Source: Eubacteriales bacterium
Lineage (GTDB): Bacteria; Bacillota; Clostridia; Oscillospirales; CAG-272
NCBI GenBank assembly: GCA_045646945.1
Contig: JAZRLS010000062.1
Coordinates: forward strand, 26,618-90,617
Length of the DNA: 64,000 nt
Direction of reading: 5' to 3'
This document shows positions 21,405 to 39,023 of the stretch, piece after piece. Numbering within the stretch: position 1 is the first letter of the stretch; each line of letters begins with the position of its first letter. The notes under the pieces are model-generated. The model was not told where the DNA came from, made no database searches, and saw only the letters and a list, made by a program, of their open reading frames with translations. A program made the translations under genes and the position numbers.

Positions 21405-21427
21405 TGGCGGAGAAGGAGAGATTTGAA
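21405..21427. repeat. Island-distal att direct repeat (copy of the tRNA-Ser 3' end)
   Basis: TGGCGGAGAAGGAGAGATTTGAA, identical to 39001-39023. Confidence 0.85.
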
Positions 21428-27914: not shown

Positions 27915-28913
27915 TCATTTTTTGTTCTTCTTTTGTTTTTTAATGATTGTCTTTAAACTTTTTGGAATAACTTTTTTTATAATCTTTTTAACCCTGCCCT
28001 TTAAACCTATAAAGCGATTTACAGCGGAAATGAGGTTATGTTTTGACAACAAATCAGCAAATACGTCGCGTTTGTCATTTGGCTTTTTTGACATAATTAC
28101 CATCTTGTTTTTTTCTACTGCTTTTTCAAAAGTTGTATGAAATAGTTTTATTCTAGGGGTGGAGTTTATAAAGGCATCTCCCTTTTCTGTTTCCGCAAAA
28201 ATAGATGAAACACCATATTTATTCCAATATACATCACTACAGGTTGCTCCCCAAAAATCACCAATCATAATATCGCCTTGTCTGTTATTCCCTTTAAATT
28301 GGCAATTATAACACGATGGTTTTCCCAAAATGGAAAAAGCATATCCATATTCAGTTTCATAAAAAGGTTTTTGATATATTTTTCCGTTATCAAATTTTGC
28401 ATATAGATACGAAGGTTGCCATGCATCTAATTTGTGTCTTACCGAAAAGTCTATTACTTTGCTTTTGTACTTTTTTTCCAAATATGCTATGTAGTCAAAA
28501 TGAACTTTGGCATATGTTGGGCCATGACATATCAGTTCACAGGTTATAAGATTCTCTGGCTTTGCACCTATGAATGTGTATAATGCTGCGATAATGCAAG
28601 GCAAACCAAAAAACAATACTACTTTCCCTGTATCAACTAAATTTTTCACATCAGCGTAGATGCCTGTTTTATCACAATCGATATATTTAGATCCTTTCAG
28701 TTTGTATAAGTCCGATATATCGTCGATAATAATGTATTCTGCTTTGTAAAAATCCTTGCTGTACGCAACTCCGACAACATAGCCGTCTTGCGACAAAACA
28801 AATTCACTTAATGCGGTAGCTATACCACCAGAAGCACTTTGTAGCAATTTGGCATCATTATCCAAATACCCTCCGTATACAGCAACATCGTGTTTGTTGT
28901 ATTCTTCATACAT
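27915..28913 (-). CDS. Coenzyme F420 hydrogenase/dehydrogenase beta-subunit (FrhB/FdhB)-like protein
   Basis: SASGGIATAL N-domain motif, Cys cluster (CELICHGP, CYNCQFKG), Lys-rich tail. RBS AAGGAGG 8 nt before ATG 28913. Confidence 0.55.
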   Translation of the reverse strand: MYEEYNKHDVAVYGGYLDNDAKLLQSASGGIATALSEFVLSQDGYVVGVAYSKDFYKAEYIIIDDISDLYKLKGSKYIDCDKTGIYADVKNLVDTGKVVLFFGLPCIIAALYTFIGAKPENLITCELICHGPTYAKVHFDYIAYLEKKYKSKVIDFSVRHKLDAWQPSYLYAKFDNGKIYQKPFYETEYGYAFSILGKPSCYNCQFKGNNRQGDIMIGDFWGATCSDVYWNKYGVSSIFAETEKGDAFINSTPRIKLFHTTFEKAVEKNKMVIMSKKPNDKRDVFADLLSKHNLISAVNRFIGLKGRVKKIIKKVIPKSLKTIIKKQKKNKK

Positions 28914-28933
28914 TTTTGTAGCCTCCTTTTTTG

Positions 28934-29093
28934 CACTAAAAGTATAGTTATGGCTGATTTTTCCGCCATAGGAATTTTTACGGTTATCATTATATCACAT
29001 TCGCCGCCATTTGTCAATATTTCACGAATAGAATTGTGAAATATTGGCGCTTTTTCATATGAAAACAGTTTTGCTATAACTATACTTTTAGTG
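28934..29093. repeat. 21-bp inverted repeats flanking a 118-bp promoter-containing segment (candidate inverton)
   Basis: CACTAAAAGTATAGTTATGGC (28934-28954) versus the reverse complement of GCTATAACTATACTTTTAGTG (29073-29093): 20 of 21 match. Confidence 0.6.
28989..29017 (-). promoter_or_regulatory. Consensus sigma-A promoter facing the FrhB-like gene, overlapped by an 11-bp palindrome
   Basis: Minus strand TTGACA-17 nt-TATAAT. The -35 overlaps the inverted repeat CAATATTTCAC (29015-29025) / GTGAAATATTG (29036-29046). Confidence 0.6.
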
Positions 29094-29684
29094 AAAATCC
29101 AAGGTTTTTCCTTTCTTGTAGAACGCCCACAGTGGCATTCCGCAAGCCTCGGCTGCCTCTTTTGCGGGCAGTTTTTTATTTTTCCAGAGCAGATAATACT
29201 TCTCATAGTCGGGCGGTATGTGGAAGGGCGGTCTGCCGAAGCGCACACCTCGTTTCTTTGCCGCCGCAATCCCCGATGCCTGACGCTCTCTGATATTGAT
29301 GCGCTCGTTCTCGGCAACGAAGGATAAAAGCTGTAAAACCAAATCCGAAATAAACGTACCGAGCAGATCCTTGCTCTTGGTGGTATCAAGAAGCGGCATA
29401 TCAAGCACAATAATATCCGCTTTTTTCTTTTGCGTGATCTTCTTCCATTCCTCTTGAATCTCGTGGTAGTTGCGCCCGAGACGGTCAATGCTCTTGATAA
29501 TGAGAATGTCGCCCTCGTGTAAGCTGCGGTACATCCTGATATACTGCGGTCGGCAGAAGTCCTTTCCGCTTTGCTTGTCTATGTAGATGTTCGATAGCTC
29601 AATGCCGTAGGCAGTCAGCTCGTCAAGCTGTCGGTCTTCCTTTTGTGTAACGGACGATACTCTTGCATATCCTATTTTGATGAT
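29088..29684 (-). CDS. Small serine recombinase; catalytic N-terminus in frame but without ATG/GTG/TTG start
   Basis: In-frame upstream of the tracked ORF: IIKIGYARVSSVTQKEDRQ (catalytic Ser). Also IKSIDRLGRN and a C-terminal HTH. RBS AGGAGG lies 5-8 nt before the ATC codons at 29684/29681. Confidence 0.6.
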   Translation of the reverse strand: MIKIGYARVSSVTQKEDRQLDELTAYGIELSNIYIDKQSGKDFCRPQYIRMYRSLHEGDILIIKSIDRLGRNYHEIQEEWKKITQKKKADIIVLDMPLLDTTKSKDLLGTFISDLVLQLLSFVAENERINIRERQASGIAAAKKRGVRFGRPPFHIPPDYEKYYLLWKNKKLPAKEAAEACGMPLWAFYKKGKTLDFH

Positions 29685-29740
29685 GAATCCCTCCTTTCCG
29701 GCGGCGAAATGCGATATAAGATATTATATCATAAAGGGAT

Positions 29741-29836
29741 TTAACAAGTGTTTGCTTTGTGCGTCTTTTTGTAGCTGAGATAGATATCCACAAGCACCTC
29801 TATCACGGCTAAAATAATCAGCTTCAGATATTTCAT
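29741..29836 (-). CDS. 31-aa hydrophobic peptide ORF (below the ORF-track cutoff)
   Basis: MKYLKLIILAVIEVLVDIYLSYKKTHKANTC. RBS AAAGGAG 4 nt before the ATG. Lies 13 nt after the amidotransferase stop. Confidence 0.25.
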   Translation of the reverse strand: MKYLKLIILAVIEVLVDIYLSYKKTHKANTC

Positions 29837-29849
29837 AATACTCCTTTCG

Positions 29850-30794
29850 TTAGTAGCTGTAACAGCCGTAAATATAGTCCTCGATTTCATCGGGGGAGAA
29901 CCCCTCGGCTACGAGCGCATCGATCTCCGAGGACTCATACCCCTCCATCAGAGCGGCTTGTTTGAGCATAGACATGTAATCGTCCTTACTGCTCTGACTT
30001 TGCGTGGGGGTGGTAAAGCCCCATCCGTAATCGTACCAACGGCACAAGCCGTATGCCGCATATTCGTCATAGTCAAACTCGGAATAGGATAGCTCTCCCC
30101 GTGGCGTAATCTTCAAGATTTGTCCCTCTTCGAGAGGGATTTCCTCATAATGTCCGAGCTTCAAGGTGTCAAATAGCTTGGTGTTGATGACCGATTTCCA
30201 CAAGATTTCCTCGGTGCTTGCGTACACGAACAGCTTTTCCTTTGGGAAATGCAGAACGGCAATGGGATTATCACCCTTAATCAAATAAATATTACTCTGA
30301 TCGTCAAGCAGGGCAAACGAAAAGCTCCCCGACACGGTTTCAGCCATAAAGCGCAGGCTGTTCTCGTCGAGGAGCTTCTGTTGTTCAATCAGTTGCACGG
30401 CAATGTAGCTATCGGTTTCGATCTTGCTCTTGGGTAGGCGGTACTGCTTTTGCAGCTCGTCCATGTTGTATAGAACACCGTTATGAGTAAGGGCAAATTT
30501 TGTGCCTCCGGCTTTGCCGTAAAAGGGATGATTGTTGTAATTCTTCTTAGCAAGACCGTGGGTGGCGTGTCGGGTGTGTCCGATGATTGCCGATACTTCC
30601 TTGGGCGGCTTGAACGTGACCGCATATGCCGCCTTGGGAGTTTTGTCGATCACAATGCGGTTCTTATAGTGATAGGCAATTCCGCAAGCATCTGTGCCTC
30701 GTACCGAAGATTCGCTTGCAAGCTCGTTGAGAAGTGCCGCCAAGTCTATCTTTGATTCTTCCGCATAGGATGAAAATCCGAAGATTCCGCACAT
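29850..30794 (-). CDS. Stand-alone class-II (Ntn-type) glutamine amidotransferase
   Basis: N-terminal nucleophile MCGIFGF. HTRHATHG, NNHPF and HNGVLYN blocks. No fused synthase domain. Confidence 0.8.
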   Translation of the reverse strand: MCGIFGFSSYAEESKIDLAALLNELASESSVRGTDACGIAYHYKNRIVIDKTPKAAYAVTFKPPKEVSAIIGHTRHATHGLAKKNYNNHPFYGKAGGTKFALTHNGVLYNMDELQKQYRLPKSKIETDSYIAVQLIEQQKLLDENSLRFMAETVSGSFSFALLDDQSNIYLIKGDNPIAVLHFPKEKLFVYASTEEILWKSVINTKLFDTLKLGHYEEIPLEEGQILKITPRGELSYSEFDYDEYAAYGLCRWYDYGWGFTTPTQSQSSKDDYMSMLKQAALMEGYESSEIDALVAEGFSPDEIEDYIYGCYSY

Positions 30795-30795
30795 C

Positions 30796-31887
30796 TTATA
30801 TTTCCTCGCTTTCCTCTGTGATTTCGTTGATGTATAGCCGCTTGGATTTGAGATACTTGATAAGCTCGTCCTTGCCCTTGATATCGCCTACAAATTCGCT
30901 CCAAGACAGCCCTTCGATCTCAGTGTCACTTCTGTCCTTACAAACGTGGCAAAGCTCGTCCACAAGCTGTAAGGTGGCAAGGAAGGTGTTGTAATTGAGC
31001 GTTCCACGGAACAGACGAAACTCCACCGTAGCGTAATTGCAGAGGTTGACCGCAACGTATCTTCCGTAGCTTTTGTCCTTGGCATTCTTGTAGGTGTTGG
31101 CGGTGTTCTCAGAAATCCCGTAACGGCTTGCCCAACGATTGATGTTATCCACCGTTCTGCGGGAGAATTTCAAAAGCTCGTTCCAATGGTTCTCCACAAA
31201 GAAGACGATACGGGCAATGACTGACTCCTGTGCTTCTTCACTCTCACCGAATGCCGAGCGGTTGACGTGGCAGTGCAGACCGCAAGTATCGGTGTCATGG
31301 GAGCGGTATTCCATCTTGATCGCCTTTCGAAATACCTCTTGCCAATTCATACGCTCGGTATGATAATCAAGCGTCATAGGATGCGACACAAGCTCAAAGC
31401 CGTCTTCAAGGCTTCCGTCATGTTTGCAGTACAGATGCTCGTCATCACGGTTGGCTATGTACATAAGCGTATCAGCATTGTCACTGCATTCACCGCCATC
31501 GTCGATTTCAAGCTCCACGCCGATAAACAAATCGCCCTCTCCGTAGAAGATCGGAGAGGGCTTGTAATTGTAGCTTTCAATACTGCTGTCATTCAGACGG
31601 TCATAGCAAGAGGAACAGTAGTCACGGTCGGAATCCTCGTCGTAGCAGGCATCATCCTCGCAAATCAACCGACCGCAGTCCGAGCAGTGAATGAAGTTGT
31701 ATTCGTAACAGTGGTTGCAGAGGGTGTAATTGTCCTCGTGGATGGCATCACTGCGCCATATGCGCTCTCCGCAGTGTTGGCAGAGAACGGTCTTTTCTTC
31801 AAGGCAATCCTCGCACATGGTGGTTTCGTTCATGTAGTGGGTGTTTTCATCGTCGAGCGGTTTCCCGCAAAATTCGCATTTCGTCAT
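30796..31887 (-). CDS. Multi-zinc-ribbon N-terminus fused to an Amidoligase_2-type (glutamine-synthetase-like) domain
   Basis: Five CxxC pairs in the first ~95 aa. Then GVELEIDDGG, KHDGSLEDGFELVSHP, CGLHCHVNR and VEFRLFRGTLN. Its stop abuts the GATase start. Confidence 0.6.
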   Translation of the reverse strand: MTKCEFCGKPLDDENTHYMNETTMCEDCLEEKTVLCQHCGERIWRSDAIHEDNYTLCNHCYEYNFIHCSDCGRLICEDDACYDEDSDRDYCSSCYDRLNDSSIESYNYKPSPIFYGEGDLFIGVELEIDDGGECSDNADTLMYIANRDDEHLYCKHDGSLEDGFELVSHPMTLDYHTERMNWQEVFRKAIKMEYRSHDTDTCGLHCHVNRSAFGESEEAQESVIARIVFFVENHWNELLKFSRRTVDNINRWASRYGISENTANTYKNAKDKSYGRYVAVNLCNYATVEFRLFRGTLNYNTFLATLQLVDELCHVCKDRSDTEIEGLSWSEFVGDIKGKDELIKYLKSKRLYINEITEESEEI

Positions 31888-31904
31888 GGTGTTTCTCCTT
31901 TGTG

Positions 31905-32075
31905 TTAATTTTCAGATGTGCTTTCGGCACAGGCTTTGATAGTCTTCTTAACAAAAAACACCGCCCGATATAGAGCGGTGATCAGAAGCGTGGCAACAGC
32001 GGCAATGACGGCAAGCACCGCATGGACCGCTTTCTTGACGGCAGGGTGATTCTTGATTTTCTTGACGCTTTTCAT
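31905..32075 (-). CDS. 56-aa small membrane protein ORF (below the ORF-track cutoff)
   Basis: MKSVKKIKNHPAVKKAVHAVLAVIAAVATLLITALYRAVFFVKK..., one TM, same strand as its neighbours. Confidence 0.3.
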   Translation of the reverse strand: MKSVKKIKNHPAVKKAVHAVLAVIAAVATLLITALYRAVFFVKKTIKACAESTSEN

Positions 32076-32117
32076 GGTAGTTTCTCCTTTGTTTTGTATT
32101 TGATTTTTGTGTTGTTT

Positions 32118-32402
32118 TTAATACTCCTCGCAGAAGAGCATGGTTGCATGGGTTTCGTCATTGATAACGTAGATCTTCGCCGTGATCGACACATCCGACA
32201 GTAATAGATATTCCTTGCGGTAGTCCGGGCATTCCTGCGTGTGTACGATCCTCAGTTTGCCGCCCTCTGTGGATAGCTGAAATACCTGTAAGTAGTCGGG
32301 TGAAAAAGGCAGTGCGTCAATGCACTGCCATAAAAATAATTGAACGGCGAGCGGTATCTCTCGACTTACCGCCGCCGTTGCGTAACGTTGTGGTGGGAAC
32401 AT
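32118..32402 (-). CDS. Small conserved-looking hypothetical protein
   Basis: 94 aa with RBS AGGAGG before the ATG. First gene of the GC-richer minus-strand module. Family not recognised with confidence. Confidence 0.4.
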   Translation of the reverse strand: MFPPQRYATAAVSREIPLAVQLFLWQCIDALPFSPDYLQVFQLSTEGGKLRIVHTQECPDYRKEYLLLSDVSITAKIYVINDETHATMLFCEEY

Positions 32403-32490: not shown

Positions 32491-32519
32491 TTGAATTGCT
32501 ATCACATTTATGTTATAAT
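32491..32519 (+). promoter_or_regulatory. Sigma-A promoter for the NACHT gene
   Basis: TTGAAT-17 nt-TATAAT with a TGT extended -10. Confidence 0.55.
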
Positions 32520-32554
32520 AAAGTACAACAAGTATCAATAGAGGAGTTAAAACG

Positions 32555-34834
32555 ATGATTAAAGATTATTTTTTTAATTGGTGTCTTGATTTTATAAAAG
32601 ACAGACTAAAAGACAAAGTTAAATTAGGGAAAGTAAAATCTAATTTAAGCAAATATATTGACGACTGTTTAAAAGATAATGAATTATGTACAGTGGAAGA
32701 AGAATTTGATTTTCAGGGATTGTGTGATTACTTAAAAGATAGCTGTTTAGATGAAGTTAAGAAGTATATATGTTCTAATGGCGAAAGACGAAAAAGAATA
32801 AGAGAAGATATTGTTGCAAAAGCAATTGAGTATTCAAATGCGAAAATGAAAGTATCTGTCCAAAGAGTTGAAAAAATAACAAATAACGCTATTGATATTA
32901 TCTATGATTTTTATAGAAGTGAAAGTAATAATGATTTACTGTTGTTAATTGGAGAAACTCAGGAATTGATTTGTGAAACGTATGAAGCATTAAGAGATCA
33001 AAACGAAAAACTTGCAGAAGACGTTAAAGCGATCGTTAAGGATGAATCTAAAATAAGAAAAATAGAAGAATTTGATACGATTTCCACCTATATCAACACC
33101 TTCATTAAACAACAGAAAGAAAATGTTAAGAATCAAACCATATTTCCGTGGTTTAATGATTCTCCCAAGTATCGAGAAGTCTTTCCAAAATTGTTTGTTT
33201 TTCCAACATTCAAGGAAGGAAACAATAATGTCACATTAGAGAATTTAACATCTAAATCGGGAGAGAACATCGCAATTCTTGGTGATGCTGGAGCAGGAAA
33301 ATCAACTTTGTTAAGATATATATTTGCCTTTACCGAAATACCTCAATGCTCTTGTCTATATATAACAGCTAAGGATACAAAAAAGGAAAATGGTATATTA
33401 GATGTAATCTCTCTATATTCTCAAAAAAATAACAATTGTCGATATTTGATATTTATTGATGGTGTAGACGAAGCTTACCACAACGATTATTCTGGATTTG
33501 AGTTTTTAATAACAAAAATAAAAACAATTACAAATTGCAAATTTTGGCTTGGTTGTAGAACTGATTACTATAAAAAGTATTATGGAGAAAATATATGCTT
33601 TGTTAACCACAATTACGAAATTAATCCTTGGTCACCAGAGCAAACAGAAAAATTTATTCACGAATACGCGATTATTAGGAAAAATCCAGAAATAAATAAA
33701 TTTGTTGATAAATTAACCGACGGAAACGAATCGGTGGAAAAATTAAAGTCAAATCCATTTCAACTTTCTTTAATTGTTTTTTTAGCCGATATAAAAGAAG
33801 ATAAGCCAGTAATATGTATGTATGATCTGTACGAAAGGTTTATGCAAAAATGGTTTGATAGAGAGCAGAAAAGAGGGACTTGCTCTGATGAAAATAAAAT
33901 TATACTAAATAAATTACGTGAAGCTGCTAAAGCAATATATAATAATAGTACAATTCTAATTGATGATACTATTAAGAAGAATACTGCGGCTAGCGACCTA
34001 TTAGTTATTAATGAAATTGACATATACAATGAAAGATATGCATCTGCCTTCTATCATCGCAGCTTAGCCTCATTTTTGTTGGCACAGCAAACCATTGAAA
34101 TGTTATTTGGCAATGATGTTGAGCAAGTCATAAATGTTTTGTCTTATAAATTGAAAGATGATGTAACGAATTTTGTGGGAGATAAATTTTCCACCTTATC
34201 TCAAGCAGAAAAAGCTAGAATAAAAAACAATTTACATCACTTCTATAAATCGATTCCGGATGATGAAGAAAATTTAAGCGTTAGAGAACAGATTATATAT
34301 TACATAACAAGGCTTGATATTGATGTTTCAGATTTTCTTGTTGAAGTTATTAATAGTAATCCTCAACACCCTATTATGAGATTAACATTGGCATATGGAT
34401 GTGCACTTTCTGAAAATATGATAGCAAGGGATTTTGCTTTGTCATATGCAAAATCAATATCCAATGAAACAATTGATGCAATAACGAATAGAGCTTGGAC
34501 TGTTGTATATTTTGATGATATCAATAGGGATCCCTATACATATAGAGACAATGAAAAATGCCAATGGAAAAATGCAAGAATGGCGAGGATAAAAAGGTTT
34601 ACAAAAGAAGAACCAAGAGTCAAAGATTACAGATTTAGACTGTTTGACATTCCTTTGTTTTATAGTTTTTTAAACGATCGTGGGTGGAAAGACATATCTG
34701 ATGAGGAATATCGCATATTGGCAAACATCGACTTCCCATTAAATATTTTCAATTATGAAGAAATATGTTTTTTAAATGAACAAAAGGCAAAATTGTTATT
34801 TGAATATGAGAAGCATTTAAATAATAATCAATAA
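32555..34834 (+). CDS. NACHT-type STAND P-loop NTPase
   Basis: Walker A ILGDAGAGKST, Walker B YLIFIDGVDEA, NPFQLSLIV, FYHRSLASFLLA (NACHT winged-helix-type motif). ~240-aa helical N-domain and ~250-aa C-domain unassigned. Confidence 0.75.
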   Translation: MIKDYFFNWCLDFIKDRLKDKVKLGKVKSNLSKYIDDCLKDNELCTVEEEFDFQGLCDYLKDSCLDEVKKYICSNGERRKRIREDIVAKAIEYSNAKMKVSVQRVEKITNNAIDIIYDFYRSESNNDLLLLIGETQELICETYEALRDQNEKLAEDVKAIVKDESKIRKIEEFDTISTYINTFIKQQKENVKNQTIFPWFNDSPKYREVFPKLFVFPTFKEGNNNVTLENLTSKSGENIAILGDAGAGKSTLLRYIFAFTEIPQCSCLYITAKDTKKENGILDVISLYSQKNNNCRYLIFIDGVDEAYHNDYSGFEFLITKIKTITNCKFWLGCRTDYYKKYYGENICFVNHNYEINPWSPEQTEKFIHEYAIIRKNPEINKFVDKLTDGNESVEKLKSNPFQLSLIVFLADIKEDKPVICMYDLYERFMQKWFDREQKRGTCSDENKIILNKLREAAKAIYNNSTILIDDTIKKNTAASDLLVINEIDIYNERYASAFYHRSLASFLLAQQTIEMLFGNDVEQVINVLSYKLKDDVTNFVGDKFSTLSQAEKARIKNNLHHFYKSIPDDEENLSVREQIIYYITRLDIDVSDFLVEVINSNPQHPIMRLTLAYGCALSENMIARDFALSYAKSISNETIDAITNRAWTVVYFDDINRDPYTYRDNEKCQWKNARMARIKRFTKEEPRVKDYRFRLFDIPLFYSFLNDRGWKDISDEEYRILANIDFPLNIFNYEEICFLNEQKAKLLFEYEKHLNNNQ

Positions 34835-39000: not shown

Positions 39001-39023
39001 TGGCGGAGAAGGAGAGATTTGAA
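39001..39023. repeat. att direct repeat within the tRNA-Ser 3' end
   Basis: Identical 23-mer to 21405-21427. Confidence 0.85.

Follow-up and report, generated by a model that had tools for sequence, protein, structure and literature searches.

A zinc-ribbon amidoligase and a stand-alone class-II glutamine amidotransferase form a conserved gene pair on mobile elements of gut Clostridia

We analysed a 64,000-nucleotide stretch (the window) of a ruminant-gut Clostridia genome (Eubacteriales bacterium, GenBank assembly GCA_045646945.1, contig JAZRLS010000062.1, positions 26,618 to 90,617). In this window, five co-oriented open reading frames (ORFs) run on the minus strand from 32402 to 29741. They encode a DUF960 protein, a transmembrane (TM) protein termed TM56, an amidoligase with N-terminal zinc ribbons, a class-II glutamine amidotransferase of the N-terminal nucleophile (Ntn) type (GAT-II) and a micropeptide termed pep31 (Table 1). 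An annotation made earlier from the letters alone, referred to here as the original prediction, had described five ORFs in this order, and all of them were found at its coordinates. The gaps between consecutive genes, from DUF960 to pep31, measure 42, 17, 1 and 13 nt, and an AGGAG-type Shine-Dalgarno (SD) site precedes each of the five starts. The SD site of TM56 (AAAGGAGA) lies 7 nt upstream of its start, and that of pep31 (GAAAGGAG) is strong, the pep31 ORF beginning 13 nt past the GAT-II stop codon.

The operon is a GC-richer patch (about 49% GC) amid AT-rich cargo blocks of 33–40% GC. Pooled over the window and the related loci L001–L004 (four loci, 91–93% nucleotide identity), the ratio of non-synonymous to synonymous polymorphism (pN/pS) is 0.14 for DUF960, 0.36 for TM56, 0.05 for the amidoligase, 0.08 for GAT-II and 0 for pep31. 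Each ORF is under purifying selection, and all five are therefore real genes. Relatives of the stretch are contained in public animal-gut metagenomes. Contigs from metatranscriptomes span most of the module; as these libraries may contain DNA and the runs hold relatives only, we claim no expression, and parts of the stretch that lack contig cover in those runs carry no meaning.

To place the operon among its relatives, 113 loci were collected, 33 from species-representative genomes and 80 from the 412 IMG/VR contigs that matched. In 105 of these the sequence extends far enough past the ligase, and 97 of the 105 have a class-II GAT-like gene no more than 700 nt downstream of it, which bears out the expectation that the two genes are kept as neighbours. 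Among these 97 loci, 62 carry a GAT of the window type and 35 a very divergent type, termed F3, which also begins with Met-Cys (MC). The GAT start falls within 5 nt of the ligase stop codon in 51 of the 62 loci, and in the window it lies 1 nt after the stop. Moreover, the identities of ligase and GAT to their window counterparts covary (r = 0.95), and the same arrangement is present in mycobacteriophage Marvin (gp105-gp106). The original prediction had grouped all five genes into one tight module; of the five, just the ligase and GAT-II stay together across the loci, and these two genes alone are the conserved unit.

Table 1. Coordinates of the operon genes and of adjacent features in the window.
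Feature	Position	Strand	Description
DUF960 protein	32118..32402	-	94 aa, first operon gene; Pfam PF06124, E 7e-25, 87.8 bits
TM56	31905..32075	-	56 aa, single-pass TM protein, one hydrophobic helix
Zn-ribbon amidoligase	30796..31887	-	363 aa; Pfam PF12224
Stand-alone class-II (Ntn, Cys1) glutamine amidotransferase (GAT-II)	29850..30794	-	314 aa, start MCGIFGF
pep31 micropeptide	29741..29836	-	31 aa, hydrophobic, basic tail
Candidate operon promoter TTGATA-17-TAACAT	32510..32538	-	Upstream of DUF960; consensus scan only, 9/12 matches
Small serine recombinase (DNA invertase type)	29088..29723	-	Pfam Resolvase; phrog_125 DNA invertase, E 1.9e-47
Invertible promoter segment (inverton), 168 bp	28930..29097	.	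25-nt inverted repeats 28930-28954 and 29073-29097

The ligase family is very large: at E <= 0.001 it takes in more than 5,000 protein clusters, most of them 365–370 aa long and about 60% identical. The source genome holds a single copy. The ligase family was found in 11 genomes (about 5%) of the 201 sampled from the same order, and in none of 10 other sampled genomes of the same taxonomic family, a patchy distribution that fits horizontal carriage. A DNA-level search of plasmid and phage collections gave no match, and none of the five proteins matched the anti-phage defence profiles of PADLOC-DB at E <= 0.01. For a census of neighbours, Pfam was run on 140 representatives of the neighbouring genes of 110 loci, which yielded 76 families. 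Integrases, helix-turn-helix regulators, DUF3846 and various genes for defence, recombination and lysis make up the 25 commonest. Among these there is no third enzyme that recurs, and no gamma-glutamyl cyclotransferase (GGCT), ATP-grasp or thymidine-hypermodification gene.

The amidoligase matches the Pfam family Amidoligase_2 with 34.9 bits (cut-off 22; E 1.9e-8), and GAT-II scores above the cut-offs of GATase_6 (49.7 bits), GATase_7 (34.9 bits) and GATase_4 (27.3 bits), so that profile hidden Markov model (HMM) searches upheld both family assignments of the original prediction. The ligase also matches phrog_16683 over nearly its full length (E 3.9e-92) and contains every one of the motifs ascribed to it, namely GVELEIDDGG, DGSLEDGFELVSHP, GLHCHVNR and VEFRLFRG. 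Where five CxxC pairs had been counted there are six (C4/7, C25/28, C36/39, C57/60, C68/71 and C91/94), whose twelve cysteines are invariant in 21 homologues. In the AlphaFold2 model, which has a mean predicted local distance difference test (pLDDT) score of 82.9 and a score of about 90 over the zinc-ribbon array, residues 1–100 are predicted to form three tandem C4 zinc ribbons with LIM-like packing, and residues 117–362 a domain of the glutamine synthetase (GS)-like carboxylate-amine ligase fold. In line with the former, a profile search of PDB sequences returned weak LIM-domain matches to the N-terminus only; it gave no sequence-level match for the catalytic domain.

At the level of structure, the catalytic fold matches GS-type and gamma-glutamylcysteine ligase (GCL)-type structures with Foldseek probabilities of 0.99–1.0. 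Aligning residues 117–362 of the model with VIA-align gave Z scores of 9.5–11.2 against YbdK-type GCS2 enzymes, GS, GCL and PafA/Dop (11.2 to the YbdK-type 1tt4, 10.9 and 10.7 to GS, 10.0 to GCL and 9.5–9.6 to PafA/Dop); for GS, GCL and YbdK by themselves the scores span 9.2–11.2. We do not name a single nearest relative among GS, GCL, YbdK and PafA, all of which are tied within about 1.5 Z units. Invariant in the 21 homologues are E125, E127, D129, E133, K155-S159, E165, H205, H207, R210, E289, R291 and R294, and these acidic, His and Arg positions appear typical of the metal/ATP site of the superfamily. In the 120 longer homologues compared, the extra length consists of more zinc-ribbon repeats and unannotated extensions, never of a GAT domain. 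Many of these proteins measure 640–860 aa, with added zinc-ribbon repeats and extensions of 100–400 aa of unassigned fold, and one (P0131) bears an LPD3 polyvalent-protein domain. Some large IMG/VR phage contigs (among L084, L095, L099, L104 and L108) have two ligase paralogues around one GAT-II-like gene.

The partner is related to the glutaminase domains of PurF and GlmS. Its profile retrieved PurF (E 2e-10) and GlmS (E 4e-9) from the PDB, and Foldseek aligned its AlphaFold2 model (pLDDT 88.6) to PurF with E 7e-14, a TM-score of 0.60 and a root mean square deviation of 3.5. In the model, the Ntn glutaminase core (residues 1–240) superposes on the PurF and GlmS glutaminase domains and is followed by a disordered linker (249–266) and a C-terminal three-helix mini-domain (268–309) with a conserved G[FY]xP[ED]EIE[ED][YF][IL]Y motif. 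The predicted linker and helical domain, which would have no catalytic role, are consistent with docking. As had been foreseen, the protein stands alone: neither an asparagine-synthetase nor any other synthase domain is fused to its 314 residues, and the ligase is the candidate acceptor in trans. An assignment as a GlmS, PurF or AsnB enzyme was rejected, the NCBIfam scores lying far below the respective cut-offs, and the NCBIfam search found no specific family.

Residues of the glutaminase site are strictly kept. C2, R75, T78, N105-G106 and D128 are invariant in 29 homologues, and we take R75, N105-G106 and D128, by motif, to be the counterparts of PurF R73, N101-G102 and D127. In the divergent F3 partners the equivalents R75, N113-G114 and D126 are likewise invariant. 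MC opens all 60 of 60 close-clade partners, and in the F3 clade it stands at or near the called ORF start in 32 of 32, in about 28 of them as the first two residues. The glutamine pocket is thus intact in both very divergent partner families. It comprises Cys1, the HxR arginine for the alpha-carboxylate of glutamine, the oxyanion Asn-Gly pair within HNG and, for the alpha-amino group, the aspartate within [ST]D[ST].

Set beside what was observed directly, that is real genes with their folds, conserved catalytic residues, coupling and distribution over mobile elements, the chemistry of the pair is read with more caution. We tentatively favour, as the best of several candidates and with less than even confidence, a heteromeric two-subunit glutamine-dependent amidotransferase that acts on a macromolecular target. 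The ligase and GAT-II would form a complex in which the Cys1 glutaminase, docked on the ligase through its C-terminal helical mini-domain, would hydrolyse L-glutamine. The ligase would use ATP to convert a carboxylate, by analogy the gamma-carboxylate of a glutamate, to an acyl-phosphate, which the released ammonia, presumably transferred between the subunits, would turn into an amide. The zinc-ribbon array would pick the target. Because the array is modular and variable in copy number, we take this target to be a macromolecule (a protein, nucleic-acid or cell-envelope polymer) and not a free metabolite. Arguments in favour of an amidotransferase are the PurF/GlmS-like partner, the near-universal translational coupling, the docking-like C-terminal domain and the self-sufficiency of the two genes.

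Several points weigh against it. The structural search cannot separate GS, GCL, YbdK and PafA/Dop. Fusions are common for obligate amidotransferase pairs, and no ligase-GAT fusion was found among 120 longer homologues. We also know of no composite amidotransferase with a GS-like synthetase subunit. Finally, other Amidoligase_2 subfamilies adjoin AIG2/GGCT gamma-glutamyl cyclotransferases (Orf22-23 of Tn6164; prophages of C. clostridioforme), so that the common denominator of the partners would be the cleavage of gamma-glutamyl amides.

The last observation and the missing fusions speak for a different division of labour, in which the ligase attaches a glutamate via its gamma-carboxylate, or a short peptide tag, to a target amine on a protein, a polyamine, the cell wall or DNA, and the GAT-II-like Ntn hydrolase removes or transfers it. 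The Ntn pocket would fit a gamma-glutamyl group with free alpha-amino and alpha-carboxylate groups, and, as noted above, the glutamine/gamma-glutamyl pocket of the partner is intact. This gamma-glutamyl writer/eraser reading was reportedly put forward by Iyer et al. in 2009. PafA/Dop, PuuA/PuuD and EgtA/EgtC offer precedents, each characterised member of the fold activates the gamma-carboxylate of glutamate, and PafA and Dop are among the structural neighbours of the ligase. On the other hand, the 1:1 translational coupling of a writer to its eraser would mean a futile, ATP-consuming cycle, and GAT-II lies nearer to PurF/GlmS than to hydrolases of the YafJ/EgtC type (1te5 at only E 9e-6). Nor is there a Pup-like tag gene: no small ORF of the operon ends in GG[QE] (DUF960 ends in CEEY, TM56 in TSEN and pep31 in ANTC). 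An enzyme that modifies the intermediate is not conserved nearby among the 25 commonest neighbour families. We regard such a writer/eraser as possible yet doubtful, and rank the amidotransferase slightly ahead of it.

The two small ORFs had been proposed as possible substrates or partners of the enzymes. For TM56 and pep31, Pfam, PHROGs, NCBIfam and PADLOC returned no family match. Homologues of TM56 occur only in L001, L002 and L004, within the set of loci at least 94% identical. The TM56 coding sequence contains a terminator-like hairpin just upstream of the ligase (31959-31980, minus strand), with a stem of 8 bp, six of them GC pairs, followed by TTTTTTGTT; it may be an attenuator or due to chance. 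The amino-acid sequence of pep31 is identical in L002–L004, with only synonymous changes at 96–99% nucleotide identity. A distant homologue (MRYIKIFIIALMDIIVDVYDKRRR) lies at the same position in L038, whose ligase is only 61% identical to that of the window, and this peptide ranks first for pep31 by phmmer (E 0.024 among 39,441 small frames). Kinship of pep31 with the upstream peptides of the L017, L026 and L006 types was rejected as compositional only, with no HMM match.

These features raise the question of whether the pair matures a micropeptide, amidating a buried Glu/Asp or the C-terminus of pep31 or TM56 to give a membrane-active peptide. The strict purifying selection on pep31 argues for it, as do the strong SD site directly behind the GAT stop and the two acidic residues inside the hydrophobic helix (E13 and D17), which are kept in both the window and L038. 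Likewise, in other sublineages unrelated small hydrophobic TM ORFs flank the pair, just before the ligase or just after the GAT. Yet these are no commoner beside the pair than beside control genes of the same loci: after dereplication, leading small TM ORFs were found in 7 of 60 groups (12%) against 8.4% for the controls, and trailing ones in 8 of 51 groups (16%) against 13%. A role for them as a family-wide third component was rejected on these counts. Moreover, most loci lack the room (in L008 the gene behind the GAT follows after only 48 nt), no homology is detectable between peptides from different sublineages, and a zinc-ribbon array would be an odd recognition module for a membrane peptide. 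Peptide maturation is thus improbable in our judgement. TM56 and pep31 are, as far as comparison of the loci can tell, real but lineage-specific accessories. As the small ORFs are neither family-wide nor enriched over background, they are unlikely to be a conserved substrate of the pair.

About 26 of the 113 related loci have DUF960, the first gene of the operon in the window. Its position varies: often it immediately precedes the ligase, and in one group it sits about 3.6 kb downstream, past DUF1643 and a large serine recombinase. Behind the pair, the IMG/VR loci L039–L044, L049 and L071 carry in turn DUF1643, a gene of 97 aa, a large serine recombinase and DUF960. This arrangement is ccr-complex-like, as in the staphylococcal cassette chromosome (SCC) elements, here in gut Clostridia. 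In the staphylococcal elements, both DUF960 and DUF1643 are described as belonging to the ccr gene complex, which also includes a helicase and a primase (PMC10581047). DUF960 is therefore a backbone gene of SCC-like elements and not a dedicated partner of the pair. A search for a relative of DUF960 with a solved structure found none.

Large serine recombinases, MobA/VirD2 relaxases and D5_N primase-helicases recur in the related loci. Together with DUF960, these genes identify the carriers, in gut Clostridia, as prophages and as integrative elements of the SCC-like or mobilisable kind. The window shares DUF960 with the SCC ccr complex, and its related loci share DUF1643, the large serine recombinase and the D5_N-type primase-helicase. 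The island in the window differs in that it uses a tyrosine integrase at a tRNA-Ser gene and has no large serine recombinase. To our knowledge, SCCmec is not known to carry a ligase-GAT pair.

This 17.6-kb island lies between the two copies of a perfect 23-bp direct repeat (21405-21427 and 39001-39023), and the 3' end of tRNA-Ser(GCU) forms the copy on the right. The island encodes a tyrosine integrase, a D5_N/DUF5906 primase-helicase, a rolling-circle Rep-like protein and two small serine recombinases, and is flanked by chromosomal genes found near the replication origin (parAB, gidB, serS). Together with the IMG/VR contigs and mycobacteriophage Marvin, it agrees with the expected residence of the pair on phages and mobile elements. 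The island also holds an AT-rich block with STAND-like, HNH-like and other genes. The original prediction had linked the operon to such neighbouring conflict genes, including a 'NACHT' gene that diverges from it. The divergence and the gap were confirmed (152 bp, the gene starting at 32555), whereas the NACHT label rests on sub-threshold Pfam matches. The similarity of the window DNA to L001–L004 ends at about 32446, and none of the related loci has the AT-rich STAND/HNH/HEPN block. The divergent gene is therefore a neighbour by insertion and not a partner, and the proposed link to conflict genes is not supported.

Residence on viral contigs bears on a further explanation, namely that the pair adds a decoration to a modified base in the DNA of the element itself, which would thereby evade restriction. 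Lee et al. found Pfam amidoligase and glutamine amidotransferase genes to be co-associated with 5-HMUDK and aGPT-Pplase clusters in viral contigs (PMC8989533), and this association supports such a role, as does the presence of the family on 412 IMG/VR viral contigs; the zinc ribbons, moreover, could bind DNA. Against it, neither the window island nor the 25 commonest neighbour families include a dUMP hydroxymethylase, 5-HMUDK, aGPT-Pplase, TET/JBP or pyridoxal-phosphate or radical S-adenosylmethionine enzyme, and a host-replicated, integrated island of 17.6 kb has no evident way to hypermodify itself alone. We consider base hypermodification the least probable of the explanations, and very improbable in itself.

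Directly downstream of pep31 lies a small serine recombinase of the DNA invertase type (Table 1), which is an adjacent unit and not part of the enzyme pair. About half of the close-clade loci have a small serine recombinase no more than 4.5 kb downstream of the pair. The window copy has no ATG, GTG or TTG start before its catalytic Ser region (29681-29723); a strong AGGAGG followed by ATC ATC codons suggests a non-canonical start of the ATC/ATT type, and an extended -10 element, TGATATAAT, lies just upstream. Behind the gene is an inverton, controlled by this invertase, whose arms are 92% complementary and 118 nt apart. It contains a perfect TTGACA-17-TATAAT promoter (12/12), which in the orientation of the window is ON towards an FrhB-like gene (27915-28913). 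Relative to the window, L002–L004 carry the segment in the flipped orientation, and contigs from three public runs contain the flipped junction, in which 28952 is joined to 29076 on the opposite strand and 18 letters are shared. This inverted repeat and its spacer recur behind the orthologous invertase in L007, L008 and L010, and the gene behind the switch varies by locus (BspA-type leucine-rich repeat, MORN, WG-repeat or large zinc-ribbon protein). In the flipped orientation, transcription from this promoter would run into the invertase and the amidoligase operon in the antisense direction.

The overall organisation of the pair is that of the phage and plasmid amidoligase plus glutamine amidotransferase systems that Iyer, Abhiman, Burroughs and Aravind are said to have predicted in 2009 (Mol Biosyst), for example in phiEco32 and LUZ24-like Pseudomonas phages. 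In both, genes of these two Pfam families adjoin each other on phages and mobile elements, the ligase has a GS-like fold and the partner is a Cys1 Ntn enzyme. However, the window clade has an N-terminal array of three C4 ribbons (phrog_16683) and is found chiefly in gut Clostridia, on prophages and on SCC-like or mobilisable islands, and in the window the pair shares its operon with DUF960 and two micropeptide genes. The pair family was thus already predicted in 2009 and is uncharacterised, and the present copy is an ordinary member of it. As the original prediction had stated, no experimentally established substrate was found: the searchable literature on Amidoligase_2 yielded genome annotations and comparative-genomic prediction, and no biochemical or genetic study. 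A 2026 paper on a Klebsiella 'amidoligase' was set aside as irrelevant, its subject being an ATP-grasp enzyme.

The ligase shares its catalytic fold with GS, GCL and YbdK (GCS2), and the acidic, His and Arg residues conserved on its central sheet appear to be common to them as well. Those enzymes are only about 10–14% identical to it. The window ligase has no evident oligomerisation domain, carries the additional zinc-ribbon N-terminus and has an obligate GAT-II partner in its neighbourhood. PafA and Dop belong to the same superfamily and act as ligase and amidase/deamidase on the gamma-group of glutamine/glutamate of a macromolecular substrate. Unlike GAT-II, however, Dop is a paralogue of PafA and not an Ntn enzyme, and the Pup-like gene with its C-terminal GG[QE] has no counterpart here. 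With respect to the amidotransferase that we favour, the functional parallels are the MurT/GatD lipid II and AsnB-type amidotransferases, in which a glutaminase, either separate or fused, feeds ammonia to an ATP-dependent, carboxylate-activating subunit that amidates a Glu/Asp carboxylate of a larger substrate. Their folds are different: MurT belongs to the Mur ligases, GatD is a class-I GATase and AsnB has an adenylating PP-loop domain; none of these is homologous to the window ligase.

The pair occurs alike on lytic phages, prophages and SCC-like or mobilisable islands. Its modification thus probably serves the establishment or protection of incoming DNA and not host metabolism. A more specific proposal, which we offer as speculative and rather unlikely in this exact form, is that the pair is an establishment or counter-defence device of phages and of SCC-like or mobilisable islands, which would amidate or gamma-glutamylate a specific macromolecule of the host or the element soon after entry. 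Candidate targets would be a sensor of a defence system, a protein that acts in replication or recombination, or a receptor in the cell envelope. If true, this would amount to a new post-translational or polymer modification in genome conflicts.

The copy in the window holds nothing fundamentally new in itself but is of practical use: it is a compact and intact operon that is suited to expression, and it lies beside a naturally flipping promoter switch. As DUF960 and the small ORFs are accessory, the minimal unit is narrowed to two genes. Among the enzyme modules of uncharacterised chemistry on gut phages and mobile elements, this pair is one of the most abundant. The identity of the substrate would reveal a new amidation or gamma-glutamylation of a macromolecule and, probably, also a new step in the establishment of incoming DNA.

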